Positions 21,907-41,880 of a DNA stretch of 64,000 bases are shown in pieces. A model generated the notes under the pieces. That model was not told where the DNA came from. It ran no database searches and worked only from the letters and a program-made list of their open reading frames with translations. A program made the translations under genes and the position numbers. Source of the DNA: Alphaproteobacteria bacterium (GTDB taxonomy: Bacteria; Pseudomonadota; Alphaproteobacteria; Bin95); contig CBDBGH010000003.1 in assembly GCA_965205265.1 (NCBI GenBank), positions 2,752,001 through 2,816,000 of the forward strand, given 5' to 3'. Within the stretch, counting starts at the first letter, position 1. Every line of letters begins with the position of its first letter.

Positions 21907-22430
21907 TCGTATCGGTCGGATGGATTTGTTCGGAGTGAACGAGGCGGGGAATTTCAGCGCAGCAGTACGGCCCTGCGGACGGGAAGCCTTGCCGGCGCCG
22001 GCGTGACGGAGCGCCCAACGGCGGCCCTACGCCGGGTCCCGGCGGTCATGCGGCAGCCTTCAAGAGCTTCGGCAGTCGGATCAGGTCGTAGGCGGCCAGC
22101 GCCGGGGTGAACTGCCAGTCAACCCGGGCCAGGCCGCGATGTCGGGTCTTCGAGAGGCACGCCCCGTCTTCAACCAGCCGAAGACCTCCTCGATCCGTTT
22201 GCGGTGAACCTGGCTCGCTCGATATCCCTCGCTCGCCGCCATCTCTTCGCCGATATTCGAGCGCCGGCCCGCGGTGTTGCGCGCCGCATGTGCCTCGGCG
22301 CCGAAGGCTTTGCAGGTCCTGACGAACTCCGCCGTGTCATAGGCCTTGTCCGCTCCCACCGACACAGCCCGGTCGGGCTCCTCCCGGCGCCCTTCGGCAT
22401 GACCTCGCCGGCCAGGCATTTCGCTTGGCC
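21852..22430 (-). mobile_element. IS5-family transposase C-terminal remnant with end
   Basis: GADKAYD...GYRASQVHRKRIEEVFGWLKT...AAYDLIRLPKLL* (stop 22046), frameshifted; CAGGCTGTGGAAGAAC end-like sequence at 21852. Confidence 0.75.
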
Positions 22431-22847
22431 GCAGCCCGACATCCGCGCGGCCTCGGTCAGAACCGCGAACGTCGCAGCTCCGGCTATTGCTGTGCAAGCC
22501 CCAGCAACATGGCGTCCGGCGTATAGCTCGCAACGCCTTAATGGTCGCCAACGCACTTGCCCATGTCGCACATCGCCGACGCGGCCGACGCCTGCGGCCC
22601 GATACGCTGGCCGTCTTCCGGCGTGCAGAGCTGCGGCTTCTCCATGCCGAGCCGCTCCGCGACCTTCGCGCCGAAAGCGAAGGCGGTCCCGAATTCGACC
22701 TCAACATCGGAAGTCCGCAGAAAAAGTAATCGGCCGTCCTACCGAACGAAGATGAACTTATGGACCTCATATTAATTCGGTATTTGCCGGCGCAGTTGGC
22801 CGGCTCCATCCTGCCGCGAGTGCAATAGCTGCGAAAGGAGCAGACAG

Positions 22848-23342
22848 ATGCACGTCAGACGAATCGACGTACGGAGCCTGGCGGCCGCGGTCGCGGCGCT
22901 GGGCATCGTGGCGGCGCTGGCCGGTCCCGCGCTGGCTGGCGGGGACAGCGGTCCGCCCGCCCGTACGGGCAAGATCCACGACGACTGCGAACTGTTCAGC
23001 CTCACGGTGACGACCAGCAGCGTCACGATGAAGGCGGCCTGCAGGGTCAGCGATGAAAACACCAGCATGAAGTGGTCGACCGTCAACCTCAGCAACAATA
23101 TCAAGGTCGACACGAAGGAGACGGGCCATCTGAGGTGGGGCGGCAGCAACTTCCAGGACCACTGCAGCGGCATCGCCGTCGAGCAGCAGGACAGCGGCGT
23201 GAAGCTGAAGGCCACATGCAACTACTACTGCAATTTCGACAGAGGCCGGTATTTCGGCTGCCCCTCGGGGAGCACGAATACGTCGCTGCAGTTGGCCGAC
23301 TACTACGAGGCGAGTTCCAGCGGCACCCTGGCGGTCAAATGA
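22848..23342 (+). CDS. Secreted cyanovirin-N-like (CVNH) protein, paralogue 1
   Basis: Sec signal ...AGPALA|GG; four Cys spaced as in CV-N; STVNLSNNI..GHLRW.GSNF..HC; extra Cys pair. Confidence 0.72.
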   Translation: MHVRRIDVRSLAAAVAALGIVAALAGPALAGGDSGPPARTGKIHDDCELFSLTVTTSSVTMKAACRVSDENTSMKWSTVNLSNNIKVDTKETGHLRWGGSNFQDHCSGIAVEQQDSGVKLKATCNYYCNFDRGRYFGCPSGSTNTSLQLADYYEASSSGTLAVK

Positions 23343-23504
23343 GCCGGCGGCGGCTTGGGACCGGCAGGCTGGACAGGCGGCGTTCGCCGGAGAGGCGCCG
23401 AGGACAGGCTTAATCGGCGCGACAGGAATTCGGTATTGGCCTGCCGCAACCTGCCCGCCCCAGGCTTCGGGGCGTGCAACGACTGCGAAGAAAGGAGCAG
23501 ACAG

Positions 23505-23993
23505 ATGCGCACAAGACGAATCGGCATACGGAGCCTGGCGGTCGCGGTCGCGGCGCTGGGCGTCGCGGCGGTCCTGGCCGGCCCCGCATTGGCGGGGGGA
23601 GGCGGACCCTCCGCCCGGACCGGGAAGATCCACCAGGATTGCGACCAGTTCAGCACGCAGGCGTCGGGCGACAAGCTCCTGCTCAAGGCAAACTGCAGGA
23701 CCAGCGACGACAACGAGAACAAGAAGCAGACGAGCGTGAACCTCGCGGCCAACATCGGCAACGCCGACGGCTATTTGACCTGGAACGGAAACAGCTTCCA
23801 CAAGAGCTGCAACAAAATCGCCGCCGAGAAGCATAACGACGGCGTGAAGCTGAAGGCTTCATGCAGCTATCAGTATTGCAGGAAACCGAACCAGTTCCAG
23901 GACTTCGGCTGCCAGACCAAGAGACGGGATACGTCGCTGGAGCTGAACTCCTACTACGAGGTGAACTCGTCGGGCGACCTGACGGTCAAATAG
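23505..23993 (+). CDS. Secreted CVNH-like protein, paralogue 2
   Basis: RBS AAGGAG; TSVNLAANIGNADGYLTWNGNSFHKSC resembles CV-N SSIDLNSVIENVDGSLKWQPSNFIETC. Confidence 0.8.
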   Translation: MRTRRIGIRSLAVAVAALGVAAVLAGPALAGGGGPSARTGKIHQDCDQFSTQASGDKLLLKANCRTSDDNENKKQTSVNLAANIGNADGYLTWNGNSFHKSCNKIAAEKHNDGVKLKASCSYQYCRKPNQFQDFGCQTKRRDTSLELNSYYEVNSSGDLTVK

Positions 23994-24155
23994 GCCGGCG
24001 GCGGCTCGGGACCGGCAGGATCGGCAGGCGGCCTTCGCCGGAGAGGCGCCGAGGACAGGCTTAATCGGCGCGACAGGAACTCGGTATTGGCCTGCCGCAA
24101 CCTGCCGGCCCCAGGCTTCGGGGCGTGCAACGACTGCGAAGAAAGGGGCAGACAG

Positions 24156-24617
24156 ATGCGCGTAATGCGATTCAATGAACGGAGCCTGTTTGGCGCTATT
24201 GCCGCGCTGGGCGTCGCGGCAATGCTGGCCGGCCCTGCGCTGGCGGGGGGGTCGGGCCCCGACCCCCGGACTGGAAACATCCACGACGACTGCAACCAGT
24301 TCAGCCTGCAGGAGGACGGCGACAAGCTCCTGCTCAAGGCGAAGTGCAGGACGAGCGACAGCAACACCGACAAGAAGGAGACGAGCATCGACCTCGCCGC
24401 CAGTATCGGCAACGACAATGGCTACCTGAAATGGAACCAGAGCCTCTTCCACAAGAGCTGCGACACCCTCAGCCTCTCGCCCCACACCCAGGGAGTACTG
24501 CTGTGGGCCAGCTGCACCTACCTGCTGCAGCAGTACCACAAGCAGAAACGCAGAACGAAGATGGAGCTGGGTGACCGCTATCGGACCGACTCGTCGGGGG
24601 ATCTGGCGATCCGGTAA
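24156..24617 (+). CDS. Secreted CVNH-like protein, paralogue 3
   Basis: TSIDLAASIGNDNGYLKWNQSLFHKSC; only the four core Cys. Confidence 0.8.
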   Translation: MRVMRFNERSLFGAIAALGVAAMLAGPALAGGSGPDPRTGNIHDDCNQFSLQEDGDKLLLKAKCRTSDSNTDKKETSIDLAASIGNDNGYLKWNQSLFHKSCDTLSLSPHTQGVLLWASCTYLLQQYHKQKRRTKMELGDRYRTDSSGDLAIR

Positions 24618-24741
24618 TGGCGCTTCGGGCCGGGCTCCGAAGACGGGCTTATGGGAGCGATAGGAATTCGGTATTTGCGTGGCGCAACCGCCGGTTCCAC
24701 GCTTCGGGAAGTGCGGCAACCGCGAAGAAAGGAGCGGACAG

Positions 24742-25290
24742 ATGCGCGTAATACGATTCCATGCACGGAGCTTGGTCGGCGCTATCGCCGCGCTGGGCAT
24801 TGCGGCGGCGCTGGCCGGTCCCGCCCTAGCCGGCGGGGGCGGCGGTCCTCCCGCACGGACGGGGGCAATCCACGATGACTGCGAGGGGGTAAGCCTTCAG
24901 GAATCGGGCGGTAAGCTGGAACTTCGGGCCAACTGCAGAACCAGCGACGAAAATGAGGACAAGGCGCAGACAAGCATCGACCTTTCCGACATCAAGGCTG
25001 TCCCAAATCATCGAGTGGGCATCCTTCCGAACAGCGAGCGAATCAACCCCTTCCCCGGACTGGGATGGAGGGAATCGGGCTGGAGCCGCTTTTACGACGC
25101 CTGCCATAGCACCGAACTCCAAAAGCGTTCCGGCGGTGTCTGGGGAATAAAGACGCGGTGCAGAATTCAGATATGCGCTGCGGATTGGGGCGGCCGTATG
25201 ACCAACTGCAGCGATTCCGAAACCTGGGGGTATTTCGATCTGCACAGCAAGTACTGGGTGAACTCGGCAGGCAAGCTGGCGATCAGGTAA
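24742..25290 (+). CDS. Secreted CVNH-like protein, paralogue 4 (with insertion)
   Basis: Same leader and IHDDC..ANCRTSD..TSIDL core; Pro-rich insert before GLGW; extra Cys pair. Confidence 0.72.
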   Translation: MRVIRFHARSLVGAIAALGIAAALAGPALAGGGGGPPARTGAIHDDCEGVSLQESGGKLELRANCRTSDENEDKAQTSIDLSDIKAVPNHRVGILPNSERINPFPGLGWRESGWSRFYDACHSTELQKRSGGVWGIKTRCRIQICAADWGGRMTNCSDSETWGYFDLHSKYWVNSAGKLAIR

Positions 25291-25436
25291 GCCGCTCTGG
25301 ACTGGGTCTCCGTTACCGGGTGGACCGGGGTTCGAAGACGGACTTATGGGAGCGATAGGAATTCGGTATTTGCGTGGCGCAACCGCCGGTTCCACGCTTC
25401 GGGAAGTGCAACAACCGCGAAGAAAGGAGCGGACAG

Positions 25437-25901
25437 ATGCGCGTAATGCGATTCAATGCACGCAGCCTGGTCGGGGCTATCGCCGCGCTGGGCATTGCGG
25501 CGATGCTGGCCGGCCCCGCTGTGGCCGGAGGCGGATCGTCCGGCCGGACGGGGCATATCAACAAGGATTGCAGCGGGTTCAGCCTGCAGACCGACGGCGA
25601 CAAGTGCCTGTTCAAGGCGAGCTGCAGGACGAACGACGACAACGAGGACAAGAAGGCGACCAGCATCGACATCGCGGCCAATATCGGCAACTACGGGGGC
25701 AACCTGACGTGGAACTACAGCCGCTTTCACAAGAGTTGCGGCCAGATCAGCCTCGATGACCTGAGTGTGAAGGCATACTGTCCGTATTCGGTCTGTCCCC
25801 GGAATACGGGAGGCGAATGCCAAACGAGGTGGAAGTGGTCATGGTTCAACCTGACTACGAAATACAAGGTGAACTCGTCGGGCGATCTGGCCTTGAAGTA
25901 A
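25437..25901 (+). CDS. Secreted CVNH-like protein, paralogue 5
   Basis: TSIDIAANIGNYGGNLTWNYSRFHKSC; C-terminal YKVNSSGDLALK. Confidence 0.8.
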   Translation: MRVMRFNARSLVGAIAALGIAAMLAGPAVAGGGSSGRTGHINKDCSGFSLQTDGDKCLFKASCRTNDDNEDKKATSIDIAANIGNYGGNLTWNYSRFHKSCGQISLDDLSVKAYCPYSVCPRNTGGECQTRWKWSWFNLTTKYKVNSSGDLALK

Positions 25902-25943
25902 GCCGCCCGACGGCGGTGTCCCGTTCGGAAGGCGCGCGATAGC

Positions 25944-27665
25944 ATGGAACGCATCCCGGGGGACGGATCCCCGGCAGCCCGAACCTGCCATACGGAGCTT
26001 CCGGCGTCGGCTCCGCTCTCCGATAGCCCGGAGAGTGGAGCCCTGCCGCGAAGCGCCTTCAGGCTGCGCATTGCCGGCGGATTCGCCTCGCTCCGGGGCT
26101 GGCGCCGTTGGTGCGCGGCGACGCTGTCGGGCCTGTTGGCCGCAACCGCGCAACCGCCGCTGCTGCTGCTCCCTGCGCTCTTCGCCGGCTTCGCCGGGCT
26201 GCTCTGGCTGCTGGCCGGCGCGTCCGGGGCCCGGCAGCGGTGGTTCGACGGGTGGCTGTTCGGGATCGGGTATTTCGGCGCCGGGCTTTACTGGATTGCG
26301 GCCGCATCCGAGAACGACGCCAACCGGCTCCCGTGGCTGGTTCCGGCCATCACGGTCGGCCTGGTGCTGGTGCTTGCGCTGTTTCCCGCCGCCGCCGCGC
26401 TGGCGGCGGGCCGGCGGCCGCTGCGCCCGGCCGGGATCCTGGCGTTCGCGGGCGCCTTCACCCTGTTCGAATGGGTGCGCGGCTGGATCTTATCGGGATT
26501 TGCGTGGAATCCGGTCGGCAATATCTGGATCGAGGTCCTCCCGGTGCTGCAGGCGGCGTCGTGGTTCGGCGTTTACGGCCTGACCTTCGCGACCGTCTAT
26601 GCGGCCGCAGGCCTGGCCGCGCTCGCGTTGCGGGAACGCGGGGCAGGGGCGGCCGCGCTGTCGGGCGTCCTGCTTCTGGCCGGGTTAGCGGCGGCGGGCG
26701 CCGTCCGGCTGTCCGGAGCCCCGGCGGACTCTGGCGGCGGGGCGGCGCTGCGCATCGTGCAGCCGCATGTCGCCTCCCGCGGCAATTGGACTTCGAGCAG
26801 GCAGGCCGAGATCTTCCGGCGGTTGACCCGGATGACCGGACAAGACATGCCGGCGGGCGCCGTCGTCATCTGGCCGGAGGTGGCGATGCCCTATGTGGTG
26901 CAGATCGACGCGGAGAGCGACCCCCGGCTTGCCGGGCTGGCGCCGGAGGGCGGATACCTGATCACCGGCGCGGTCCGGTACCGGTATGAGAACGACCGGC
27001 AGGCGGAGGCCTGGAACGGCCTCATCGCGGTCGATGACGAAGCCCGCATCGTCGCCCAGTACCAGAAGCACCACCTTGTCCCGCTCGGCGAGTATGTTCC
27101 GTTTCCCGAACTGTTCGGCCTGCGGCGGGTCACCTGGGGCCGGCTGAACTTCTCGCCCGGCCCGGGGCTTGCCCTGCTCGACCTTCCGGGCCTGGTGCCG
27201 TTCGCGCCCCAGATCTGCTACGAGATCATCTTCCCGGACGCGGCGGTGGACCGGAGCGCTCCCCGTCCGGCCTGGCTGCTCTCGCTGACCAATGACGGGT
27301 GGTTCGGCGAGACCGCCGGCCCCTATCAGCATTTCGCATCGGCGCGGATGCGGGCGGTGGAGGAAGGCGCGCCGCTGGTGCGCGCGGCCAATACCGGCAT
27401 CTCCGCGGTCACGGACGCATACGGGCGCGTGACGCACCGCCTGGAACCGGGAGCGCGCGGTGTCATCGATGCGCGGCTGCCGCCCCCGTCTCCGTCCCCG
27501 ACGCTCTTTTCGCGGTACGGAAATGCCGCGGCGGCGATTCCTGTGCTCCTCGCCGGCCTGTTCCTGGCGGCGCGGAGGCTGCCGGCGATCTTCCGATACA
27601 GGCGGGCCATCGGATCGGGCAGAAAGGGGAACGGCGCGGACCCGGCCCTCGCCCGGGACAGGTGA
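25944..27665 (+). CDS. lnt: Apolipoprotein N-acyltransferase (Lnt/AatD-like)
   Basis: Multiple TM helices; nitrilase triad WPE, YQKHHLVPLGEYVP, ICYEIIFP; TNDGWFG, RAANTGIS. Confidence 0.92.
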   Translation: MERIPGDGSPAARTCHTELPASAPLSDSPESGALPRSAFRLRIAGGFASLRGWRRWCAATLSGLLAATAQPPLLLLPALFAGFAGLLWLLAGASGARQRWFDGWLFGIGYFGAGLYWIAAASENDANRLPWLVPAITVGLVLVLALFPAAAALAAGRRPLRPAGILAFAGAFTLFEWVRGWILSGFAWNPVGNIWIEVLPVLQAASWFGVYGLTFATVYAAAGLAALALRERGAGAAALSGVLLLAGLAAAGAVRLSGAPADSGGGAALRIVQPHVASRGNWTSSRQAEIFRRLTRMTGQDMPAGAVVIWPEVAMPYVVQIDAESDPRLAGLAPEGGYLITGAVRYRYENDRQAEAWNGLIAVDDEARIVAQYQKHHLVPLGEYVPFPELFGLRRVTWGRLNFSPGPGLALLDLPGLVPFAPQICYEIIFPDAAVDRSAPRPAWLLSLTNDGWFGETAGPYQHFASARMRAVEEGAPLVRAANTGISAVTDAYGRVTHRLEPGARGVIDARLPPPSPSPTLFSRYGNAAAAIPVLLAGLFLAARRLPAIFRYRRAIGSGRKGNGADPALARDR

Positions 27666-27764
27666 GAGTCCCGGGTCCGATTGGCTATCCAACTCCGACG
27701 GGCTATTTTGAACGCCGAATGGGCACTTCAGCGAATGCCGTCCGAGGACCGGCCCGGCAATGTC

Positions 27765-29261
27765 ATGAGGAAGGGAACGATCCTGGGTTTCGCCGCCGTG
27801 TGCCTCGTCGTTCTGGTGCAGGACAGGGAGGATGCGCTGGCCGCCGGGCAGCCGGAGACGGTCCGGCTCACTCTGGCCGAGGCGGTGGAACGGGCGTTGC
27901 GCCGCAACCCGAAGCTCGTGGAAGCCAGGCTCGACCGGACTCTAGAGAAGTTCGACCTCGAACAGGCCGAAGCCATGTTTGCGCCGGAGGTGAGTTTCGG
28001 CACAGCAGCTACCGGTTACAAGCTCGACCGGGGCGCGGACACAAGGAGCTACGAGTTCCGTGCAGGGCCCAGCGTGACTATGAAGCTGCCCACGGGCGGA
28101 GAGATCGGCGTCAAACCGGCCTGGACCGCGACGCTCGACCGTACCGGCGAACCCGGCCAAGTTTACGATGCGACGATGGAGTTGTCCTTCTCGCATCCGC
28201 TGCTGAAGGGCGCGGGGCTGGACGCCGGCCTGGCGCCGATCAGGCTCGCGCGCATAGCGGAGGAGAGCAATGTCCTGAAACTCAGGGCCGACGCGATGGA
28301 TGTCGTCACCTCGGTGATCGAGGCCTACCGCGCGGCGATCCGGGCGGAGAAACAGGTCGAGATCGACGAGGGCGCGCTGCAGCGCGCAAAGGAAACGCTT
28401 GAGGTCAACCGGCTGCTCGTCGACACCGGCAGGATGGCGCGGGCGGATATCGTTCAGACCGAGGCCGACATCGCGAGGCGGGAACTGGACGTGGTCCGCA
28501 GCCGGGACCGCATGGACGACGCCGGGAGGAAGCTGAACGTCCTTCTCGATCTGGACAGCGGCATCCGGCTCGTGCCCGTCGATCCGCTGACCGTCGAACC
28601 GCACCGGCCCGACCTGGAGGCCATCCGGGCGCTGGGCCGGGAACGCAACCCCGGCTATCTCGGGGCGCGGCTGGCCCTGCGGGCCGCCGAGATCCGGCTG
28701 GAGCAGGCGGAGGACAACTCGCTCTGGGACCTGTCGTTCACGGCCAGGGCCGAGTTCGGGGGACAAGGCGGTTCGTTCGGTTCGGGGCTGGGAGACCTGG
28801 CCGGCGATAGCAGGAACGAGGGCGCCTATTCCCTCGGCCTCGCCCTGAGCGTACCGCTGGGCGACACGGCGGCGAAGGCCGCCAAACGGGCGCAACTGGC
28901 TGCGCGGCTGGACCGCCGGAAGGCGGAGCGCGCGCTGGCGACGGCCGCGCGCGAGTTGGACACCGGCCTGCTCAACGCGGTGCGCGCGGTGGAGCTGGGG
29001 CTGACGCAAATGGAGCTGGCGCGCCAGGCGCTGGCGCTCGCCGAGGAAAAACTCCGGATCGAACAGGGGAAGCTCCGGCTGGGCCTGACGTCGAATTACC
29101 GGCTGGCCTCCTTCCAGACCGATCTCGTCAATGCGCAGGTCAGCGAGCTCGATGCAAAGGTCGGGTATCTGAACGCGGTTGCGGCGCTCGACAGGGCGGC
29201 GGGCACGGTCCTCGATACCTGGAATATCGATATCCGCAGCCTGTCCGAGGACCGGAAATGA
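27765..29261 (+). CDS. TolC-family outer-membrane channel
   Basis: LTLAEAVERALRRNP; two OEP repeats; GRMARADIVQ / GLTSNYRL; start may lie upstream (27681). Confidence 0.88.
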   Translation: MRKGTILGFAAVCLVVLVQDREDALAAGQPETVRLTLAEAVERALRRNPKLVEARLDRTLEKFDLEQAEAMFAPEVSFGTAATGYKLDRGADTRSYEFRAGPSVTMKLPTGGEIGVKPAWTATLDRTGEPGQVYDATMELSFSHPLLKGAGLDAGLAPIRLARIAEESNVLKLRADAMDVVTSVIEAYRAAIRAEKQVEIDEGALQRAKETLEVNRLLVDTGRMARADIVQTEADIARRELDVVRSRDRMDDAGRKLNVLLDLDSGIRLVPVDPLTVEPHRPDLEAIRALGRERNPGYLGARLALRAAEIRLEQAEDNSLWDLSFTARAEFGGQGGSFGSGLGDLAGDSRNEGAYSLGLALSVPLGDTAAKAAKRAQLAARLDRRKAERALATAARELDTGLLNAVRAVELGLTQMELARQALALAEEKLRIEQGKLRLGLTSNYRLASFQTDLVNAQVSELDAKVGYLNAVAALDRAAGTVLDTWNIDIRSLSEDRK

Positions 29262-31060
29262 GCGCGCCGGTTCACGAGGCCATTCTGGATGACATGGACG
29301 ACGGCGTCGTGTCGATCGCGAAGGACGGCAGCATCATATTCGTCAACGCGGCCGCCGCGCGCATTCTCGGACTGGAGGGCGCCCGGGTCGAGGGCCGCAA
29401 GTTCGGCGAGGTCTTTGCGGCGCTGGAAGGCCTGGACCCGTTCACCGAAACCGTTCTCGACGCGGTCGGCGAGGAGCAGGATATCGGCCGGAAGGCCATC
29501 GAGATCCACGCCGGGGGCGAACGGCGCCTGCTGAAGATCGGCACGTCCTGGCTGCATTCCGGCAAGGGGGCGGACAGCCGGCGCGCGGGCATCGTTGCGG
29601 TCTTCTCGGATATCACGGAAATCCAGGAGTTGCGCGAGACGGAAATCAGGCTGGGCGAGAGGATCAGGGAGCAGTACGGCGAGCTCCAGGACGCCTACCG
29701 CAAGATCGAGGAGAGCAACAGCGAACTGTCGTCGACGCTTCGGCGCGTGCAGGCGATAAAGGTCGTCGCCGCCGCGGTGGCCGCGATTATTCTCGGCGCC
29801 GGATACTACGCCTGGCGAACGACCCAGGGCCCCATTGCCGCCGAGGCGGCGGCGCCGGCGGGAGAAGGCGGGCAACCCGCCACCCTGGTCGTCCAGCCCC
29901 GGCAATTGCGCTCGACCGTGTCCTTCCCCGGTCGGCTTGGACCGCGGCGGCAAACGAATGTCGTCAGCCCGGTCCCCGGCGTTGTGAGCGCGCTGCATTT
30001 CCAGTACGGCGACAAGGTCGAGAAAGGGCAGGTTCTGCTTGAACTCGACATTTCGAAGATCGTTCGGGAACACCGGTCGGTGCGGGCGAAATACATCGAG
30101 ACCGTCAAGCGCGCCAAGGAACTTGAGGACTGGGAGAGCGGCCCCGAAATGCTGGCCGCGCATCGCGCCCTGGACCGGTCCCGGCGCACCCTCGACAGGC
30201 AGAAGCGGAAGCTGGAGCAGACCGCCTTTCTGCTCGAAAGCGGCGTGATCCCCGCATCGGAACACGAAGCGGCCCTGGAGCAGTACGAAAGCCTCAAGGT
30301 CGAGCACCGGACGACGGAGGAGAAGCTCGAGGCGGTGCGGGAACGGGGCGGCGCTGCGGCCAGGGAGGTGTCGAAGCTGGAATTGCAGACGGTGGAGGAG
30401 CAGCTCCGCGAGTTGGAGGCTGCGATGGAGCTGTCTGCTGTGCGGGCGCCGATATCGGGCATCGTCGCGCAACCGGCTCAGGACCGCCTGGGCTTCCCGG
30501 GACAATCGGATGGGGGCAGGCTTCCCCTGAAGGGAACGCAGGTATCGCGCGGGCAACTTCTGCTGACCGTTGCGGATGTCGAATCCCTCTCCGTCAAGGG
30601 GTCCGTCGATGAAGTGGAGGTGACGAAGCTGCGTGTGGGGCAACCGGTCGCCGTCACCGGGGATGCGTTCGCCGGCGTTGCGCTCTCCGGCGCCCTCAGC
30701 AGCGTCTCTTCGCAGGCCGCCAATGCCGTGTCGCATGGCAACCAGCCCGCGCTTTTCAGCTTTGTCGCCGCGCTCGACGAATTGGGCCCGGGGGTCCGGC
30801 AACGGTTGCGGCTGGGCATGACGGTCGATGTCGAGGTCGTAATCGAGGACATGCCCGAAGCATTGCTCGTCCCGCTTCGGGCGGTGCAGCGGCGAGGCGA
30901 TTCGCTGTCCGTCCGGGTCCTGGACCGGGCCACCGGCGAAATACGGGCCGTGGAGGTCGAAACCGGGACGACGACCCGCGACTCGGTGCATGTCAGGCGC
31001 GGGCTCTCCGCCGGCGATACGATCGTTCTCGACGACAGGGACAGCGGGCCCCGCGGATGA
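29258..31060 (+). CDS. Membrane-fusion (MacA/HlyD-type) adaptor with N-terminal PAS domain
   Basis: ILDDMDDGVVSIAKDGSIIFVNAAAARILG...VAVFSDITE (PAS); coiled coil; TM; VVSPVPGVVS...GDKVEKGQVL; VRAPISG; GLSAGDTIV. Confidence 0.88.
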   Translation: MSAPVHEAILDDMDDGVVSIAKDGSIIFVNAAAARILGLEGARVEGRKFGEVFAALEGLDPFTETVLDAVGEEQDIGRKAIEIHAGGERRLLKIGTSWLHSGKGADSRRAGIVAVFSDITEIQELRETEIRLGERIREQYGELQDAYRKIEESNSELSSTLRRVQAIKVVAAAVAAIILGAGYYAWRTTQGPIAAEAAAPAGEGGQPATLVVQPRQLRSTVSFPGRLGPRRQTNVVSPVPGVVSALHFQYGDKVEKGQVLLELDISKIVREHRSVRAKYIETVKRAKELEDWESGPEMLAAHRALDRSRRTLDRQKRKLEQTAFLLESGVIPASEHEAALEQYESLKVEHRTTEEKLEAVRERGGAAAREVSKLELQTVEEQLRELEAAMELSAVRAPISGIVAQPAQDRLGFPGQSDGGRLPLKGTQVSRGQLLLTVADVESLSVKGSVDEVEVTKLRVGQPVAVTGDAFAGVALSGALSSVSSQAANAVSHGNQPALFSFVAALDELGPGVRQRLRLGMTVDVEVVIEDMPEALLVPLRAVQRRGDSLSVRVLDRATGEIRAVEVETGTTTRDSVHVRRGLSAGDTIVLDDRDSGPRG

Positions 31061-31788
31061 TCCGGCTCGAAGGCATCCGCAAGAGCTATCGGGTCGGCCC
31101 GGTGATGGTGGACGTCCTCAACGGCGTCTCGCTCGAAGTGCGGGCAGGCGATCTGCTGTCCGTCATGGGTCCTTCGGGATGCGGCAAGTCAACGCTCATG
31201 AACATCATCGGGCTTCTGGACCGGCCGACGAGCGGCTCCTATTTCCTGAACGGGCGCGATGCGGCCGGCATGGGCGACGACGAAGTCTCGGCGGTGCGGA
31301 ACGCCAATATCGGGTTCGTGTTCCAGTCCTTCCACCTGCTGCCCCGGCTGACGGCGGCGCAAAATGCGGGGCTTCCGCTCATATACAGGGGCGAGCCGGA
31401 GGACCGGATCAGGCGGCAGGCCGTCGAAGCGCTGGACCGGGTGGGCCTGGCGGACCGGGCCGGGCATCGGCCCAACCAGCTTTCCGGCGGCCAGCAGCAA
31501 CGCGTCGCGGTGGCGCGCGCCCTCATCGGGAGCCCGTCCGTCATCCTCGCCGACGAGCCGACGGGCGCTCTCGATCCCGATACCGGCCGGGAAATCATGG
31601 ACATGTTCGAACGGCTGAGCTCCGAGCAGCAGATGGCCGTGGTGATCGTCACCCACAGCCCGGAGGTTTCCGAGCGGTGCCGCCGGCGCGCCCGCGTCGA
31701 GGACGGACTCGTGCGGGAAGAGCGAGCCGACGGGGCTGCGGCGCAGCAGGACGGGCGCAGCGGCGGCGGTCGTGCTTTCCAGGGCTAA
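31057..31788 (+). CDS. ABC transporter ATPase (MacB/LolD type)
   Basis: GPSGCGKST; IGFVFQSFHL; LSGGQQQRVAVARAL; ILADEPTGALD. Confidence 0.95.
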   Translation: MIRLEGIRKSYRVGPVMVDVLNGVSLEVRAGDLLSVMGPSGCGKSTLMNIIGLLDRPTSGSYFLNGRDAAGMGDDEVSAVRNANIGFVFQSFHLLPRLTAAQNAGLPLIYRGEPEDRIRRQAVEALDRVGLADRAGHRPNQLSGGQQQRVAVARALIGSPSVILADEPTGALDPDTGREIMDMFERLSSEQQMAVVIVTHSPEVSERCRRRARVEDGLVREERADGAAAQQDGRSGGGRAFQG

Positions 31789-32962
31789 CGTCAAGGAAGC
31801 CGTCGCCAGCCTTGCGGGCATTCGCGGCCGCAGCATTCTTGCGCTGTTCGGCATCGTGGTCGGCATCGGCTCGGTGATCGCGATGATCTCGACGGGCGAG
31901 ATCGTGAAGGAACAGGCGCTGAAGCAGTTCGAGGGGCTCGGCACCGATATCCTGGCGATCCGCCGGGTGCATACCCGGGTTCGGGGGAAGACCCTGAAAT
32001 TCTCCGAGGAGAACGTCCGCCGTCTCGTGCTGGACACGCCGGAAGTCTCGGCTGCCGCCACCTGGCTGGACGTGGGCGGGGACCCCCATTTCGCCGGAAA
32101 GAGGATACCGGGCGAAATCGTCGTGATGGGAGCGACGGAGTCCCTGGCCGCGATTAACAGGCTCAGGATGGCGGCAGGGCGTTTCGTCTCGCATCTCGAC
32201 CTGCACCAGCACTATTGCGTGCTGGGCGACGCGGTGGCGCGCGCCTTGCGCCGCGCCGGAGCCGGCGACGTGCTCGGAGAGAAAATCCGTCTTCAGGGGC
32301 GCCTCTTCACCGTCGTCGGCGTGCTGGAGCCGACTCCCCCGCGGCGCTTCGGGCAGGACCTCCGGCCGGATAATACCGTGTTCCTGACCCTCGGCGCCGC
32401 ACAGCGCCTCTCATCCCAGAATGTGCTCCGGCGCATCGTGGCCCGGATCTCGCCCGGCGTGCTTCCCGAAGCCGCGACGCCGGCCGTCCATTCCTTTTTC
32501 CAGCATCACGTGCCGGGCCTGCGCTTCGAAATAACGGCCGCCGAACAGCTTATCGAACGCATGCGCAACCAGGGCCGGCTGTTCACGCTTCTGCTCGCTG
32601 CGGTTGGCAGCATCTCGCTGATCGTCGGCGGCGTCGGGGTGATGAACCTGATGCTCATCTCGGTCAGCGAACGGCGCGCCGAGATCGGGCTTCGGCGCGC
32701 CGTGGGCGCGCGGCGGAGCGACATCCTCCAGCAATTCGTTACCGAGTCGGTAGTGCTGTGCCTTCTCGGCGGCGTGCTCGGCATTCTCCTGGGCGTCGGA
32801 GCCTCCTGGGGCATCTGCCAGTTCGCCGGCTGGCCGTTTTCGGTGTCGACGACATCCATGGTCCTGGGCGTGGGCGTATCCACGGGCGTCGGGGTCCTGT
32901 TCGGCCTCTACCCGGCGCACAAGGCGTCGCGGCTCGATCCGATTGCCGCGCTGCGCTCGTAG
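31772..32962 (+). CDS. MacB-type ABC permease (type VII)
   Basis: RSILALFGIVVGIGSVI; large periplasmic domain; ISLIVGGVGVMNLMLISVSERRAEIGLRRAVGA; PAHKASRLDPIAALR. Confidence 0.93.
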   Translation: MLSRANVKEAVASLAGIRGRSILALFGIVVGIGSVIAMISTGEIVKEQALKQFEGLGTDILAIRRVHTRVRGKTLKFSEENVRRLVLDTPEVSAAATWLDVGGDPHFAGKRIPGEIVVMGATESLAAINRLRMAAGRFVSHLDLHQHYCVLGDAVARALRRAGAGDVLGEKIRLQGRLFTVVGVLEPTPPRRFGQDLRPDNTVFLTLGAAQRLSSQNVLRRIVARISPGVLPEAATPAVHSFFQHHVPGLRFEITAAEQLIERMRNQGRLFTLLLAAVGSISLIVGGVGVMNLMLISVSERRAEIGLRRAVGARRSDILQQFVTESVVLCLLGGVLGILLGVGASWGICQFAGWPFSVSTTSMVLGVGVSTGVGVLFGLYPAHKASRLDPIAALRS

Positions 32963-33108
32963 GCGCCTGTTGTCGGCCGGGAACAGGCGAGCGCATCCGG
33001 GATGCCCTCCCTGCCGGTGTCCGCCGTCGCATCGACACGCGGAACCCCCTGAATTGGCAGAATGTCACGGGTCCTTCGACTCCGTGAAGATAATCTCATG
33101 GGTGCCAT

Positions 33109-33126
33109 AGGAAATCGGTATTTCCT
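33109..33126. promoter_or_regulatory. Palindromic operator-like motif AGGAAAT-CGGT-ATTTCCT (degenerate copies before paralogues 1-5)
   Basis: Copies at 22771, 23424, 24075, 24662, 25357 and 33109, each 77-81 bp upstream of the ATG. Confidence 0.65.
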
Positions 33127-33187
33127 TACGCAAACGGCTGGCTCCAGCATTCAGCGCGCCAATAACGGCAGCGAAAGGAACGGACGG

Positions 33188-33688
33188 ATGCGTATGAGAC
33201 GACCCGACATACGAAGCTTGATCGGCACCGTGGCCGTGTTGGGCATTGCGGCGATGCTGGCCGGTCCTGCATCGGCCCAGCAGACCGTCGAGGCCCGCAC
33301 GGGAAAGATCCACGAGGACTGCAGCGGATTCGGCGTGAGCGAGGTCGACAGAGTGGTCAAGATGAACGCGCAGTGCCGGACCTCCGACGACAACAACGAC
33401 AGGGCGAAGACGAGCATCAGTCTCACGAACGAGATCAGCGCGAACACCGAAACCGGCGAGCTGATTTTCGGCGGGACCGCCTTCAACTACAGTTGCAATA
33501 ACATCGGGGTCGTGAAGCACCAAACCGGCGTGAGGCTGGAGGCCGGTTGCCTGTACATCGTCGAGTGCAAAAGGAGGAGCACCACGCAGGGGAACTGCCT
33601 GGTAGGGACCACCGGCAGGAAACAGGCCACCCTGGAGTTGGCGGGTTACCTGCAGGTGAACGATGAGGGCGAGATCGAGGTCAAGTAG
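33188..33688 (+). CDS. Secreted CVNH-like protein, paralogue 6 (mature N-terminus QQ)
   Basis: Leader ...AGPASA|QQTVEARTGKIHEDC; CRTSDDN; extra Cys pair. Confidence 0.72.
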   Translation: MRMRRPDIRSLIGTVAVLGIAAMLAGPASAQQTVEARTGKIHEDCSGFGVSEVDRVVKMNAQCRTSDDNNDRAKTSISLTNEISANTETGELIFGGTAFNYSCNNIGVVKHQTGVRLEAGCLYIVECKRRSTTQGNCLVGTTGRKQATLELAGYLQVNDEGEIEVK

Positions 33689-33778
33689 CCTGCCCTCGGG
33701 CACGACGGCGGCAGGCGTGGGCGGTACGGAGCCTTCCCCCCGCCCCGCATGCCGCCGTCGAGAGAAAGGAGCAGACGG

Positions 33779-34258
33779 ATGTACCCAAGACGCTTCGACA
33801 TACGAAGCTTGATCGCCATCGTCGCCGTGTTGGGCATTGCGGCGATGGCGGCCGGCCCGGCATCGGCCCAGCAGACCGTCGAGTCCCGGACCGGGGAGAT
33901 CCACCAGGACTGCGACCGGTTCGACTACAACCTGCCCACCGACCTCTCGAAGTTCCAGCTCCTGGCATACTGCAGGACCAGCGACGACAACTCCGACCGG
34001 AAGCAGACCAGCATCGACCTCGGCGCCAACATCGGCAATAGCAGCGGTCGCCTCGTGTGGGGCGGGAACAGCTTCCAGGAGAGCTGTACTACCTTCAAGG
34101 TCGAGCAGCATACCGGCGGCGTGAAGCTGACGACCGATTGTCCCGGCCGCAGGATATATGTGGGGACCAGCAAAGAGACCGTCGAGAGGGTCACGTCATC
34201 GCTGGAGCTGGCCACATACTACAAGGTGAACGCGGACGGCGAGTTCGAGGTCAAGTAG
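33779..34258 (+). CDS. Secreted CVNH-like protein, paralogue 7 (mature N-terminus QQ)
   Basis: TSIDLGANIGNSSGRLVWGGNSFQESC; four core Cys. Confidence 0.8.
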   Translation: MYPRRFDIRSLIAIVAVLGIAAMAAGPASAQQTVESRTGEIHQDCDRFDYNLPTDLSKFQLLAYCRTSDDNSDRKQTSIDLGANIGNSSGRLVWGGNSFQESCTTFKVEQHTGGVKLTTDCPGRRIYVGTSKETVERVTSSLELATYYKVNADGEFEVK

Positions 34259-34348: not shown

Positions 34349-34780
34349 ATGGAGGCGGACATGGCCAGGACCGATCACGACGGCCTCGTCGAACAGCGTG
34401 GCGAGCTGCTGCGGGAGATTGCGGGCATCGGCGACCTCCGTCAGGGTTCGCTCAGGGCACAGTACCGCAAGTGCGGCAAACCGAACTGCCATTGCGCGGT
34501 CGAGGGGGCGCAGGGGCATGGCCCCTACTGGTTGTTGACTTGGCCGGACAGGGAGACAGGGAAGTCCCGCGGCCGCACCGTTCCCGCCGACGCCATTGAG
34601 GGAACGCGGGCGCAGATCGCGGAATACCAGCGGCTTCGCGGTCTGGTGCGCGCGCTTGTCGAGGTCAGCGGCCGGATATGCGATGCCAGGCTGGACGCGG
34701 ACAAGCCGGCCGCGCCGGGAAAAAGGGGGGTCTCGACGCAGCGATCGCGGAGGAGGTCGAGGCCGAGGTCGAGTGGCTGA
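34349..34780 (+). CDS. IS-associated small Zn-finger-like ORF (DUF6788-like)
   Basis: GSLRAQYRKCGKPNCHC...HGPYWLLTW; overlaps the transposase frame at GGGAAAAGGGGGG. Confidence 0.75.
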   Translation: MEADMARTDHDGLVEQRGELLREIAGIGDLRQGSLRAQYRKCGKPNCHCAVEGAQGHGPYWLLTWPDRETGKSRGRTVPADAIEGTRAQIAEYQRLRGLVRALVEVSGRICDARLDADKPAAPGKRGVSTQRSRRRSRPRSSG

Positions 34781-36060
34781 TCGGCGCGGGCGTCGTCGAT
34801 GACTTCCAGGCGATCGAGATCGAAGCGCGGCGGGTTGCGTTGCAGATCATGGGGCAGGCCGTCGCCCACAGGCTCAATGCCGACCGTTCCGACAACCGGG
34901 GACCGTGGCTGTCGTGTGCGTGCGGCGGCGAGGCGCGCTTCGCCGGCCGCCGGCCCAAGACCTTCACCACCGCTCTCGGCCCTCTGACGCTGGAGCGCGC
35001 CTGGTATCACTGCGACCGTTGCCACCGCGGCTTCAGCCCGCGTGATCGAACCCTCGGCATGCAAGATACTTTCCTCTCACCGGCGGCGCTGCGCATGATC
35101 GGCGTTGCTGCTGCCCGTACCAGCTTCGAGGGCTCCAGCGCCCTGTTGCGCGAACTGGCAGGCCTGGCTGTCGCGCCGAAGACGGTCGAACGCCATGCCG
35201 AGGCGCTCGGGCGAGAGATCGCAGGCGACGAATGCCGCGTGATCGAACCCGAGCCGTCCGACGCCCCCACCCTCTATCTCGGCCTCGACGGCACCGGCGT
35301 GCCGGCGCGCAAGACCGAGGTCGAGGGCCGCGCGGGCAAGCAGCCCGACGGCTCCGCCAGCACCCGCGAGGCCAAGCTCGCCGTCGTGTGGTCGGCGGAG
35401 ACCGTCGACAGGGAGGGGCGTCCGGTGCGCGACCCCGGCTCCGCCACCTACAACGCCGCCATCGAATCCATCGCCACCCGCGAGTTCGACCCCGAGCCCG
35501 CGCCCTTCGCCCGGCGTGTCATCCGCGAGGCCGAACGCCGCGGCTTCGACACGGCCGAGCGCCGGGTCATCCTCGGCGACGGCGCGCCGTGGATCTGGAA
35601 CTTCGCCGATGAGCACTTCCCCGACGCCATCCAGATCGTCGACATCTTCCATGCCAAGGGCCACCTGTTCGACGCAGCCAAGGCGATCTACGGGACCGGC
35701 AGCGAGATCGGTGAGCGATGGGCCGGGAAGCGGCGCGAGGAACTCGACGAGGGCCGCGTCGACGAGGTGATCGCCGCCCTCAAGGGCCATGCCGAAACTT
35801 GCGAGAACGCCCGCAAGAACGCCGAGTATTTCACCAACAACCGCGAGCGCATGAACTACCCGAAGTTCCGCGCGATGGGCTTGTGCGTGGCCAGCGGCGT
35901 GGTCGAGGGCGGCTGCAAGAACATCGTCGGCGCCCGCCTCAAGCAGGGAGGCATGCGCTGGACCGTCAACGGCGCCAACGCCATCATCGCCCTGCGCTGC
36001 GCCGTCGAGAGCAATCGCTTCGACGACTTCTGGGAACGACGAGCCGGCGCAATACCATGA
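34678..36060 (+). CDS. ISKra4-family transposase
   Basis: CACG..RAWYHCDRC; LYLGLDGTGVP; ILGDGAPWIW; DIFHAKGHL; ASGVVEGGCKNIV..RLKQGGMRW. Confidence 0.88.
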   Translation: MRCQAGRGQAGRAGKKGGLDAAIAEEVEAEVEWLIGAGVVDDFQAIEIEARRVALQIMGQAVAHRLNADRSDNRGPWLSCACGGEARFAGRRPKTFTTALGPLTLERAWYHCDRCHRGFSPRDRTLGMQDTFLSPAALRMIGVAAARTSFEGSSALLRELAGLAVAPKTVERHAEALGREIAGDECRVIEPEPSDAPTLYLGLDGTGVPARKTEVEGRAGKQPDGSASTREAKLAVVWSAETVDREGRPVRDPGSATYNAAIESIATREFDPEPAPFARRVIREAERRGFDTAERRVILGDGAPWIWNFADEHFPDAIQIVDIFHAKGHLFDAAKAIYGTGSEIGERWAGKRREELDEGRVDEVIAALKGHAETCENARKNAEYFTNNRERMNYPKFRAMGLCVASGVVEGGCKNIVGARLKQGGMRWTVNGANAIIALRCAVESNRFDDFWERRAGAIP

Positions 36061-36457: not shown

Positions 36458-36833
36458 TTATGCGGCATGATCGGGCTTCTGCTCCGGAACCCAGTTCCAT
36501 GGGAGGAGTTCGTCGAGCCGGTTGTGTGGCGTCCTGGCGATGCGGCCGAGCACGTCGGCGAGCCAGGCCTGGGGATCGACATCGTTGAGCTTGGCGGTGC
36601 CGATCAGGGTGTACATGGCGGCCGCGCGCACGCCGCCGCGGTCGGAACCGGCGAACAACCAACTGCGTCTTCCAAGGGCCAGAGGCCTGATTGCGCGCTC
36701 CGCGGCATTGTTTGACAGGCAGATACGTCCGTCGTCGAGGAAACGGGCGAGGCCGTCCCAGCGTTTCAGCATATAGTCCATGGCCCTGGCCACCGGGGGA
36801 ATGGCGCGAAAGCCCGGCGCGCTCGGTGCGCAT
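36458..36833 (-). pseudogene. tnpC: IS66 TnpC C-terminal part (split by IS21)
   Basis: AMDYMLKRWDGLARFLDDGRICLSNNAAERAIR...LLPWNW. Confidence 0.9.
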
Positions 36834-37094
36834 TATAGCGCGACAATCTGGGTGAGAGCCGCGCGTCAATCAGGATGAGATTCCCCGGCGGCATCGGCGA
36901 GTTGATGATTGTCGCGCGGGGCGCGGATTGCAAGCGGTTTCGGATTTTGATTGTCGCGGCGCGACAAACAAGGTTTTCGGAGAGCGTTTTGATTGTCGCG
37001 GGGGGGCCGTCGGGTCGGAGAAGAGACGGCCCGCGGAGGCGATTCCCGCGGGCCGTGAGTGTTGTGGCCGCTGGGCCGATCTGGCGGCAGCGGT

Positions 37095-39442
<2,348 letters not shown>

Positions 39443-39511
39443 CTACTCGGAAAAACGTCACCGTTCGCCCAGCCGACCGACCCCGCCAGAAGGTCCAGGA
39501 AAAATTTTTTG

Positions 39512-39570
39512 AGGCGGCGGCCCGGAACTCCGGTCGGGCTACGCCCTCCCTCCGTTCCGGGCCGCCGCCT
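39512..39570. other. 17-bp perfect hairpin enclosing the conserved 25-nt core (IS21 leader motif copy 2)
   Basis: AGGCGGCGGCCCGGAAC-[TCCGGTCGGGCTACGCCCTCCCTCC]-GTTCCGGGCCGCCGCCT. Confidence 0.85.
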
Positions 39571-39624
39571 TCCCCCGTCTCATCCTGATTGTCGCCAGCG
39601 TCTCAAGCTGATTGTCGCGCCGCA

Positions 39625-40255
39625 GCGCATCCAGTTCTCGAGGTCGACGAGGAGCGGTGCGCTCTGCTCGCGGCGCATGGCGAGGGGGCGCTCGGCGGTC
39701 TCGCCGTCGATGGAGCGCTCGATGTCGAACAGCGCATCGATCCGCTTCACAGCCTCAATCGCCAACGGCGAGATCGGCGGCGCGTTCCTGCCGCGCCTCT
39801 TGCCGGCCGCGATGTCGGCGAGTTCGTAGAACTTGCGCCTGGAATGCGCGAAGCAGGCAGCTTCGGTCACGGGCCCCGGCGGTCGGCCGGGCTCGTAAAG
39901 CCGATTGTATCCGGCAAAGGCGTCGGCCTGCAGGATGCCGGCATAGCCGCGCAGATGATCGCCCGAGCGGTTCCGCGAGTAGCGGAACAGGGCCGCCGGC
40001 GGGTCCGGACCGCCGAACGGCCTGTCGTCGCGCACATAGACCCAGGCCCGCGCAGTGTCGGCCTTGCCCTTGGCTACCAGCACCGGCATAAGCGTGTCGT
40101 CACCGCGCAGGCGGGCCGCCGCCAGCACATGGGCCGCGATCAGGTCGTGCAGCGGGCGCATGCCACGGTGCGGGCGCCGACCTAATCAGCCAGGGCCGAC
40201 AGGCTGAGATCGACGCTCTCGCGCGCGTAGCAGTCGCGCTGGCGGATCGCGCCGT
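39625..40255 (-). pseudogene. tnpC: IS66 TnpC central part (degenerate, 5' truncated)
   Basis: AWVYVRDDRPFGG..; GILQADAFAGY; ACFAHSRRKF; joins 36833 as LENWMR|TERAGLS. Confidence 0.88.
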
Positions 40256-40265
40256 GGCGCCCGCT

Positions 40266-41537: not shown

Positions 41538-41880
41538 CGCTCAGCACCCGGCGGCCTCCCGCTCGCCTGGGGCTGCGCGCGCGCTCGAGCGTCTTTCCTT
41601 CCTCGTCACGATCCGGATCGGCCACCTCACGCATCTGATCCAGCAGGCCGAGCGCCCACAGCGCGCCCAGATAGACCGCGATGCCGGTCGTCGGCTTGCC
41701 CCTCTCGACGTCAGCTATCACGAACCGGGAGACGCCTATGCGCTCCGCCAGCTCTTCCTGCCGGAGCTTGCGGCGCAGTCGTGCCGTGCGGAGGTTGCGC
41801 CCCATCCGTGCCAGTGCTTCCTCGACCGCTGCCGGGGGCGACTCGGAGATTTTCGTCGGTCTTGGCATGTGTATTTCCAT
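41527..41880 (-). CDS. XRE-family HTH antitoxin (HipB-like)
   Basis: LRTARLRRKLRQEELAERIGVSR...VERGKP; overlaps the hipA start. Confidence 0.88.
   Translation of the reverse strand: MEIHMPRPTKISESPPAAVEEALARMGRNLRTARLRRKLRQEELAERIGVSRFVIADVERGKPTTGIAVYLGALWALGLLDQMREVADPDRDEEGKTLERARSPRRAGGRRVLSDDF

Follow-up and report, generated by a model that had tools for sequence, protein, structure and literature searches.

Introduction

In the Aat/Cex system, an acyl chain is placed on a protein that has no lipobox. AatD, a homolog of the N-acyltransferase Lnt, acylates the glycine that signal peptidase I exposes on CexE, whose mature form begins GGGNS (Icke et al. eLife 2021, PMC7943197, drawn on here in excerpt). 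Here we describe a gene cluster with a comparable layout in a stretch of 64,000 nucleotides (nt) of an alphaproteobacterial genome (GenBank assembly GCA_965205265.1, contig CBDBGH010000003.1, positions 2,752,001 to 2,816,000 of the forward strand), which is called the window below. Seven genes for secreted proteins of one lectin family, termed P1 to P7, lie on either side of a gene for an Lnt-type enzyme and four genes for a putative export pump. Five of the lectins are predicted to begin with Gly-Gly once the signal peptide is removed, and the other two with Gln-Gln. The best explanation of the cluster is a surface-display module, flanked by insertion sequences (IS), that would work like Aat/Cex but is made of different proteins.

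The AatD rule had been stated in an initial annotation of this DNA, and the excerpts of Icke et al. give it in the same form. According to these excerpts (PMC7943197), the first five residues of Aap and CexE are a mix of Gly and Ser with Gly always at position 1, and they follow a signal peptidase I site with no lipobox. A CexE variant carrying G20E is neither acylated nor secreted. One added Gly is enough for acylation of mCherry, which is not acylated without it, and more Gly residues give more labeling. Four catalytic residues are required in each enzyme (E267, K335, E343, and C387 in Lnt; E217, K278, E286, and C325 in AatD). Icke et al. found Aat only in enteric pathogens.

In the literature searched, glycine-acylated lipoproteins have so far been described only for Aap/CexE with AatD; this holds for a 2021 review, the abstract and outline of a 2026 Cex preprint, and a 2025 paper that terms such lipoproteins "unique." Among the open-access papers and preprints listed as matches, none draws a link between an Lnt-type enzyme and either CVNH proteins or Gly-start cargo beyond that group. 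Of 873 matches on CVNH together with acyltransferases, MacB, or signal peptides, none of the 12 listed contains CVNH.

Results

Two N-terminal classes in one lectin family

The lectin genes and the acyltransferase gene are arranged as follows, with mature N-termini as predicted.

22848..23342 (+): P1, secreted CVNH-fold protein; Pfam CVNH 28.8 bits, cut-off 24.5; mature N-terminus GGDSGPPA
23505..23993 (+): P2, secreted CVNH-fold protein; CVNH 38.8 bits; mature N-terminus GGGGPSA
24156..24617 (+): P3, secreted CVNH-fold protein; CVNH 46.7 bits; mature N-terminus GGSGPDP
24742..25290 (+): P4, paralog by full-length alignment; mature N-terminus GGGGGPPA
25437..25901 (+): P5, secreted CVNH-fold protein; CVNH 35.5 bits; mature N-terminus GGGSSG
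25944..27665 (+): Lnt-type N-acyltransferase, LNT_N and CN_hydrolase domains; full-length, 573 residues as the open reading frame (ORF) is drawn
33188..33688 (+): P6, paralog found as a member (P0126) in the family profile search; mature N-terminus QQTVEA
33779..34258 (+): P7, CVNH-fold paralog; CVNH 39.2 bits; mature N-terminus QQTVES

P1–P5 are located upstream of lnt, and P6 and P7 downstream of the pump genes. A tblastn search of the window with family members returns exactly these seven places and no others. The ATG of each lectin gene is preceded, 7–8 nt upstream, by Shine-Dalgarno bases resembling AAAGGAG.

Residues 1–30 of the seven precursors align without gaps and comprise a positively charged n-region, a core rich in Ala, Leu, and Ile, a G26-P27 pair, and an A-x-A end (ALA in P1–P4, AVA in P5, ASA in P6 and P7). 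The initial annotation had proposed a check of the cleavage site. A scan by the −3/−1 rule finds 30/31 to be the sole A-x-A site on the C-terminal side of the hydrophobic core in all seven, which agrees with the annotated site as far as a rule can predict it. The residues that follow are GGDSG in P1, GGGGP in P2, GGSGP in P3, GGGGG in P4, GGGSS in P5, and QQTVE in both P6 and P7, letter for letter as first annotated. A shift of cleavage by +1 would leave Gly at the N-terminus of P1–P5 all the same.

The first Cys of every precursor is residue 45–47, within the lectin domain, which bears out the earlier statement that the seven paralogs lack a lipobox Cys. None of them has the Cys at mature position 1 that marks a canonical Lgt/Lsp lipoprotein. 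Twin-arginine export was rejected as a family feature, since RR is present in P1, P2, P6, and P7 but not in P3–P5.

P1–P5 show the full set of Aat cargo features: they carry a signal for signal peptidase I, lack a lipobox, and have Gly at position 1 of five residues rich in Gly and Ser. P6 and P7 do not show the full set. Dispersin (Aap) of E. coli 042, whose translation is 117 residues with the stop included, reads AFA/GGSGWN (the slash marks the cleavage site), close to ALA/GGSGPD in P3.

The comparison of mature starts took in 28 members of the family (the 7 of the window and 21 others) and left out more distant CVNH matches such as P0183, which may start with G. Nine sequences start with GG after ALA, VLA, or AVA (P1–P5, P0002, P0005, P0142, and P0144), and four of these read GGD (P1, P0002, P0005, and P0144). 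In seventeen the first residue is Q, in most cases preceded by ASA or ANA, and the cleavage site is less canonical in three of them (P0130, P0136, and P0141). The remaining two start with A (P0138) and D (P0140). No intermediate N-terminal forms are found among the 28 sequences. The Gln start is the common state of the family, and Gly-Gly is a special class. One Gln-start sequence, P0129 (ASA/QTSSVQARTG), comes from a contig of 5,463,552 nt like that of the window, yet lies outside the window. It appears to be an eighth paralog elsewhere on the same chromosome.

The copies are paralogs, and therefore their N-terminal starts are not independent events. In a maximum-likelihood tree built from the domain alone (from RTG on), where resolution is poor (5 of 25 branches starred), the Gly label requires 3 changes, compared with a mean of 7.8 for shuffled labels; a number this low is reached in 1 of 500 shuffles. 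The starred branches force at least two changes of N-terminal class. Because P1 (Gly) and P0004 (Gln; ASA/QQARTG) are well-supported sisters (support 96/92, 61% identity), the class is exchangeable between close relatives. The Gly label is clustered yet switches between near neighbors in the tree, as would be expected of a functional tag.

A rare branch of the CVNH lectin fold

The initial annotation called P1–P7 a lectin family, and both domain matches and a structure model agree with this assignment. The CVNH score (PF08881) exceeds the gathering cut-off in five of the seven paralogs. P4 and P6 have no Pfam match at E ≤ 0.01 and are members through full-length alignment. An insertion of ∼20 residues follows the first half of the lectin domain in P4 and is also present in P0005, a Gly-start relative from another source.

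An AlphaFold2 model of P2, made from a 26-row alignment, has a mean pLDDT (predicted local distance difference test score) of 85.9, with values below 50 for residues 1–31 and of 90–98 in the domain. The first ∼7 mature residues apparently form a disordered linker, modeled with low confidence, ahead of a confident CVNH fold. When the model is compared with structures in the PDB, the top 24 matches are all CVNH proteins, and the TM-scores to monomeric CVNH structures (normalized to the target) are 0.74–0.85.

Like other CVNH lectins, the P1–P7 family has four invariant Cys residues spaced as two disulfide-like pairs. In contrast to them, its domain begins at an invariant RTGxIHxDC, it has extra loops and extra Cys residues, and its members carry a signal peptide of their own type, followed by one of two N-terminal classes. 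These differences set P1–P7 apart as a distinct branch of the fold, with putative sugar binding. The branch is also rare: when 1.84 billion representatives were searched exhaustively with a profile, the yield was 127 proteins at E ≤ 0.001 and 22 at E ≤ 1e-10, two of the latter being long multidomain proteins that match in part only. A word-indexed search with P2 gives five proteins, although this method is insensitive and missed five of the window's own copies. P7 has no match among plasmid sequences. A locus of Nitrobacter sp. Nb-311A (L001), retrieved with a signal-peptide pattern derived from 15 family sequences, was rejected because the likeness is confined to the signal peptide and no lectin domain is present.

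The neighboring acyltransferase belongs to a divergent Lnt clade

The Lnt-type enzyme retains the catalytic residues of its superfamily. Its true start may be downstream of the first ATG. Residues E312, K375, E383, and C425 correspond to E. coli E267, K335, E343, and C387, and also align with the residues required in AatD. Equivalents of E. coli W237, N412, and W415 are kept as well. Together with Q233 and K236, these three residues are placed around the predicted phospholipid head-group site (PMC7240156, excerpt). The canonical pocket is not preserved as a whole: the window enzyme has S278 in place of Q233 and N281 in place of K236, and the motif VQxxIxQxxKW reads VQPHVASRGNW.

The enzyme was compared with its best 119 relatives, giving a set of 120 sequences. 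Most relatives are ∼42%–54% identical, and the named sources are all alphaproteobacterial. A clade is formed by the window enzyme with P0007 (79% identity), P0008 (70%), and P0009 (70%), and its branch is the longest of 118 internal branches (0.71, median 0.075; support 100). At 138 columns that are ≥90% conserved in the other 116 sequences, the clade deviates at 17–23 positions, compared with a median of 3, a 95th percentile of 7, and a maximum of 16 for those 116, which are flattered by the fact that the columns were defined from them.

Several of the changes are located near the active site. The equivalent of Q233 is Q in 111 of the 116 non-clade sequences and S/S/A/A in the clade, and that of K236 is K in all 116 and N/N/G/E in the clade. 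Beside the catalytic Lys (N334 in E. coli, D in alphaproteobacterial Lnts) the clade has Q/L/E/E. The Leu two residues before the catalytic Cys is Gln across the clade, and further changes fall at the positions of W132 and P147 in the E. coli enzyme. AatD of E. coli 042 carries F and V at the Q233 and K236 positions, and at the two sites near catalytic residues it has Q and H, a comparison with a very distant protein that is trustworthy only at motif-anchored columns. As a control, the plasmid-borne lnt of Dinoroseobacter shibae (pDSHI03, L004), which stands beside lspA, keeps Q..KW. This pattern fits a duplicate under changed constraint, but the data stop short of proving a second canonical lnt.

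Pump genes next to lnt

Four genes follow lnt on the same strand.

27681..29261 (+): TolC-family outer-membrane channel; OEP 112.9 bits, TolC-family models below their cut-offs
29258..31060 (+): periplasmic adaptor of the HlyD/MFP type with an N-terminal PAS domain; start overlaps the channel stop
31057..31788 (+): ABC ATPase of the MacB/LolD type; start overlaps the adaptor stop
31772..32962 (+): permease of the MacB type (MacB_PCD and FtsX); start overlaps the ATPase gene

The order from 25944 to 32962 is lnt, channel, adaptor, ATPase, and permease. The channel ORF is located 16 nt past lnt, and three start/stop overlaps follow that junction. The PAS domain, which lies ahead of the membrane segment of the adaptor, is presumably cytoplasmic, and the protein looks like a sensor-coupled pump adaptor. 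About 50 relatives share the fusion, some of them named only as proteins of gammaproteobacterial metagenome-assembled genomes. Plasmids hold only distant relatives of the PAS-adaptor, which align without the PAS part.

Co-occurrence on other contigs

Relatives of the three components were assigned to other contigs by the equal nt size and the source of their protein records.

8629-nt contig: clade Lnt P0007 (79%); PAS-adaptor P0253 (70%); lectin P0142, GGGG start
16175-nt contig: clade Lnt none seen; PAS-adaptor P0314; lectins P0128 and P0310, both QQ start
154262-nt contig: clade Lnt none seen; PAS-adaptor P0315; lectins P0305 (QQ) and P0131 (Q)
89255-nt contig: clade Lnt none seen; PAS-adaptor P0252 (71%); lectins P0130 (Q) and P0140 (D)
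8382-nt contig: clade Lnt P0008; PAS-adaptor and lectin none seen
8862-nt contig: clade Lnt P0009 (N-terminally cut); PAS-adaptor and lectin none seen

P0314 belongs to the cluster of P0251, whose representative is 77% identical to the window adaptor. Gly-start lectins are found with a clade Lnt in two of two cases, the window and the 8629-nt contig, the linkage in the latter being derived from the records rather than seen, and equal size does not prove that two records share a contig. The match points to another organism in which a clade Lnt, a PAS-adaptor, and a lectin with a Gly start occur together. No Lnt among the 120 best relatives is assigned to the 16175-, 154262-, or 89255-nt contigs, and their six lectins are Q- or D-start (0/6 Gly-start), although such absences are weak in that the lectin lists are cluster representatives and contigs have ends. 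Because PAS-adaptor relatives seem to occur with only Q- or D-start lectins on these three contigs, the pump may have served Q-start cargo before lnt joined. The layout of the window, with Gly-start genes and lnt before the pump and Gln-start genes after it, fits an older unit of pump and Gln-start lectin to which lnt and the Gly-start copies were added later.

Leaders, borders, and other genes of the window

Blocks of ∼105 nt precede six of the seven lectin genes.

22743..22847 (+): leader of P1, conserved in the leader alignment
23400–23504, 24051–24155, 24637–24741, 25332–25436, and 33083–33187 (+): leader-like blocks before P2, P3, P4, P5, and P6, from the leader alignment

No such block precedes P7, which probably shares a transcript with P6. 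Leader identity is 97% for P2/P3 and for P4/P5, whereas the coding DNA behind is only 57%–68% identical. Near-identical leaders ahead of diverged coding regions suggest gene conversion or strong constraint on a common promoter or 5′ untranslated region. An Rfam scan of the whole window, leaders included, matched no family. A scan for sigma-70-like promoters found 0 promoter-like sites, hence none in the leaders, and 9 terminator-like sites compared with 7.7 expected from shuffles; for promoters and terminators alike, the window does no better than shuffled sequence. The G+C fraction is ∼0.59–0.73 per 2 kb.

The cluster is bordered by mobile elements.

22081..22809 (−): left border, transposase (DDE) fragment; weak DDE_Tnp_1_2 match below the cut-off
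34349..36060 (+): right border, DUF6788 gene and UPF0236-like transposase gene, from the Pfam scan

Farther right, the region 36458–41880 (−) is a cluster of mobile and addiction genes. An IstB gene of the IS21 type and an ORF of 499 residues interrupt the IS66 transposase pieces there, and a gene for a HipA-like kinase follows with its helix–turn–helix partner; the area as a whole forms an island rich in IS elements. The neighborhood of lnt is accordingly an IS-bounded island, and it has no genes of the ybeZ-ybeY-ybeX type found in E. coli.

Other surface proteins are encoded to the left. Two genes for Slam (surface lipoprotein assembly modifier) are located at 3592–4857 (−) and 12539–13849 (+). 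A TbpB-barrel lipoprotein (8299–10071, +) reads LAGC followed by seven Gly, a second TbpB-barrel ORF is located at 11978–12526 (+), and a DDE transposase gene (10174–11829, +) lies between the two. Together, these genes constitute another system in the window for displaying lipoproteins on the surface. A 1201-residue autotransporter (15134–18739, −) with He_PIG, fn3, and beta-barrel domains is another surface protein of the region. A classical lipobox Cys followed by four to seven Gly is found in four ORFs (8299–10071, +; 14181–15044, −; 42792–44213, +; 44427–45947, −), and the Gly-start lectins look like these tethers minus the Cys.

Discussion

A possible route to the cell surface

The most likely scheme for P1–P5 begins with export across the inner membrane. 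Cleavage by signal peptidase I after residue 30 would expose Gly-Gly at the tip of a short flexible linker. The adjacent Lnt-type enzyme would then take an acyl chain from a phospholipid onto C425 and pass it to the alpha-amino group of Gly31. Finally, the MacB-type ABC pump, with its PAS-fused adaptor and the TolC-like channel, would carry the acylated lectin from the periplasmic face to the cell surface. The outcome would be diversified lectins on the surface, each anchored by one acyl chain. MacAB-TolC-type exporters handle periplasmic substrates.

N-terminal glycine acylation of P1–P5, as the initial annotation claimed, is the best reading of the locus, although we consider its chances to be evenly balanced. 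The circumstantial part of that claim stands: the locus encodes the roles found in Aat, the Gly start resembles those of dispersin and CexE, a linker precedes the domain, and the Lnt belongs to a divergent clade. Gene content and order, the N-terminal classes, the CVNH fold, the intact catalytic residues, and the divergence of the Lnt clade are seen in the data; cleavage, each chemical and transport step, and the place where the products end up are deduced.

P6, P7, and the eighth Gln-start copy (P0129) would not be acylatable in this manner; theirs would be the older form, which most family members have. The likeliest fate of P6 and P7 is to be unlipidated cargo of the same pump or to stay periplasmic. 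The Aat precedent argues for retention of Gln-start copies, whereas the contig pattern argues for their export. Release of P6 and P7 in soluble form, as first annotated, is plausible but found no direct support, and non-acylated CexE G20E is not secreted (PMC7943197, excerpt). Their proposed pyroglutamate capping likewise gained nothing beyond its chemical plausibility.

A more far-reaching reading is that the locus represents a second, independently assembled pathway of glycine lipidation outside Enterobacterales. A duplicated full-length Lnt, with its phospholipid head-group pocket remodeled at the positions that are changed in AatD, would operate with a MacB-type pump whose adaptor bears a cytoplasmic PAS sensor, and the first mature residue would serve as a binary sorting code, in which Gly-Gly means acylated and surface-tethered and Gln means unlipidated and either exported or retained. 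The signal-peptide/N-terminus cassette would be exchanged among paralogs, giving anchored and free lectins. As a whole this reading is possible, but we hold it tentatively and would expect some part of it to fail.

Alternative explanations

A different account holds that a housekeeping Lnt is located beside a MacAB-TolC-like pump by chance, that all seven lectins are unlipidated, either periplasmic or secreted and possibly pump cargo, and that their Gly and Gln starts are linker variants left by duplication. Several observations speak for it and weigh against glycine acylation. The window enzyme scores 286.7 bits with the TIGR00546 Lnt equivalog model, above the cut-off of 132.9, it aligns end to end with the solved Lnt structures of E. 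coli and P. aeruginosa (5N6H and 5N6M), and its catalytic E, K, E, and C are kept. No second lnt is present elsewhere in the 64-kb window, and none from the 5,463,552-nt contig is among the best 120 relatives. The enzyme could be the only, housekeeping Lnt of the cell. The initial annotation took its status as a paralog for granted, which goes further than these results do. Gly-rich N-terminal linkers are common in the window, as the four canonical Cys lipoproteins illustrate, and the GG of P1–P5 may be a mere linker; most of the Gly/Gln pattern tracks paralog descent. Two of the clade Lnts are on contigs where neither adaptor nor lectin is seen, and the limits stated above for contig linkage, for absences, and for the consensus columns count on the same side, as does a cleavage site that comes from a rule and not from a trained predictor.

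The window proteins are, in addition, evidently not Aat orthologs. BLASTP aligns the window Lnt with AatD of E. coli 042 only at the catalytic-Cys motif (ICYE; E = 0.09), which places it outside the AatD sequence type. The permease matches AatP at E = 4e-4 with 23% identity, the ATPase has a generic 35% identity with AatC, and the matches of the channel to AatA and of the adaptor to AatB are not significant. The lectins are, as judged by their Pfam assignment (CVNH), of a different family from Aap/CexE. The likeness to Aat is one of architecture and of the cargo N-terminus.

Other observations speak against a housekeeping enzyme. Its clade is the most divergent lineage of the 120 and has lost a Lys that is present in 116 of 116 others and a Gln present in 111 of them. 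The gene is packed tightly against the pump genes in an IS-bounded island rather than in a ybeZ-ybeY-ybeX context. Only two N-terminal classes recur, with a switch inside a 61%-identical sister pair, and Gly starts accompany a clade Lnt in both cases, whereas the three contigs where no clade Lnt is seen have Q/D starts only. On balance, we judge the housekeeping account to be rather doubtful, though a serious competitor.

It is also conceivable that P1–P5 are acylated but that the pump does not accept P6 and P7, which would remain periplasmic like non-acylated CexE. The failure of CexE G20E to be acylated or secreted and the need of mCherry for an added Gly (PMC7943197, excerpt) are in line with this. 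Against it, P6 and P7 directly follow the permease gene, P6 has the same leader as P1–P5, and PAS-adaptor relatives seem to keep company with Q/D-start lectins alone on three contigs. We therefore regard this variant as unlikely. Still another use of an N-terminal Gly would be as the nucleophile for peptidoglycan attachment by L,D-transpeptidases. Outer-membrane proteins of Brucella and Agrobacterium are joined to peptidoglycan via their N-termini, with a conserved alanyl-aspartyl motif (PMC10787603, excerpt); the process is thus known in Alphaproteobacteria, and P1, P0002, P0005, and P0144 read GGD. However, this motif is unlike the alanyl-aspartyl one, the Pfam scan shows no L,D-transpeptidase gene among the cluster genes, and the neighboring lnt and pump would be left unexplained. 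Such attachment is very improbable.

If glycine acylation of P1–P5 is true, the modification of secreted proteins at Gly would have a longer history and a wider distribution than has been assumed. An Lnt that looks canonical could then switch its acceptor from diacylglyceryl-Cys to Gly, and the residues that might set this specificity would be few. The annotation of all such genes as "apolipoprotein N-acyltransferase" would also conceal lipoproteins of a kind that lacks the Cys. With Gly and Gln forms of one protein family occurring naturally beside one pump, the locus offers a direct test case for the acceptor rule.

Comparison with known systems

Among canonical Lnts (TIGR00546), the window enzyme has the expected domain architecture, length, whole-chain alignment, and catalytic residues. 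It differs in lacking equivalents of Q233, K236, W132, P147, and N334 and the hydrophobic residue two before the catalytic Cys. In addition, its presumed acceptor has no diacylglyceryl-Cys, and there are no ybeZYX-type neighbors. An extra lnt on mobile DNA has a precedent in Alphaproteobacteria in the lspA-lnt modules of roseobacter plasmids: 211 plasmid records match an lnt search, and extra copies are common on plasmids of this group. In the one plasmid inspected (pDSHI03), however, lnt follows lspA in an island for copper and metal handling, with no pump and no Gly-start cargo.

The pump most resembles exporters of the MacAB-TolC type. The best NCBIfam matches are MacB for the ATPase and the permease and MFP/MacA for the adaptor, all below their equivalog cut-offs. 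Unlike in those exporters, ATPase and permease are each encoded by a gene of their own, a PAS domain is part of the adaptor, and the genes are linked to lnt and to genes for secreted lectins.

The Aat/Cex system remains the nearest parallel. Five roles are found in both: an Lnt-superfamily acyltransferase with an E-K-C triad, a TolC-like channel, an adaptor, a LolD/MacB-like ATPase, and an FtsX-type permease. In both, the cargo genes adjoin the operon on an island rich in mobile elements. The parts nevertheless differ. The window Lnt has 573 residues and an LNT_N domain, whereas AatD has 404 residues; the window adaptor is fused to PAS; seven copies of a CVNH lectin take the place of the single small coat protein that Aat has as cargo; and the host is, by the names of the best matches, a high-GC alphaproteobacterium, whereas Aat was found only in enteric pathogens. 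What is new here is an Aat-like logic carried by different parts, in a different bacterial class, and with lectins as the cargo.

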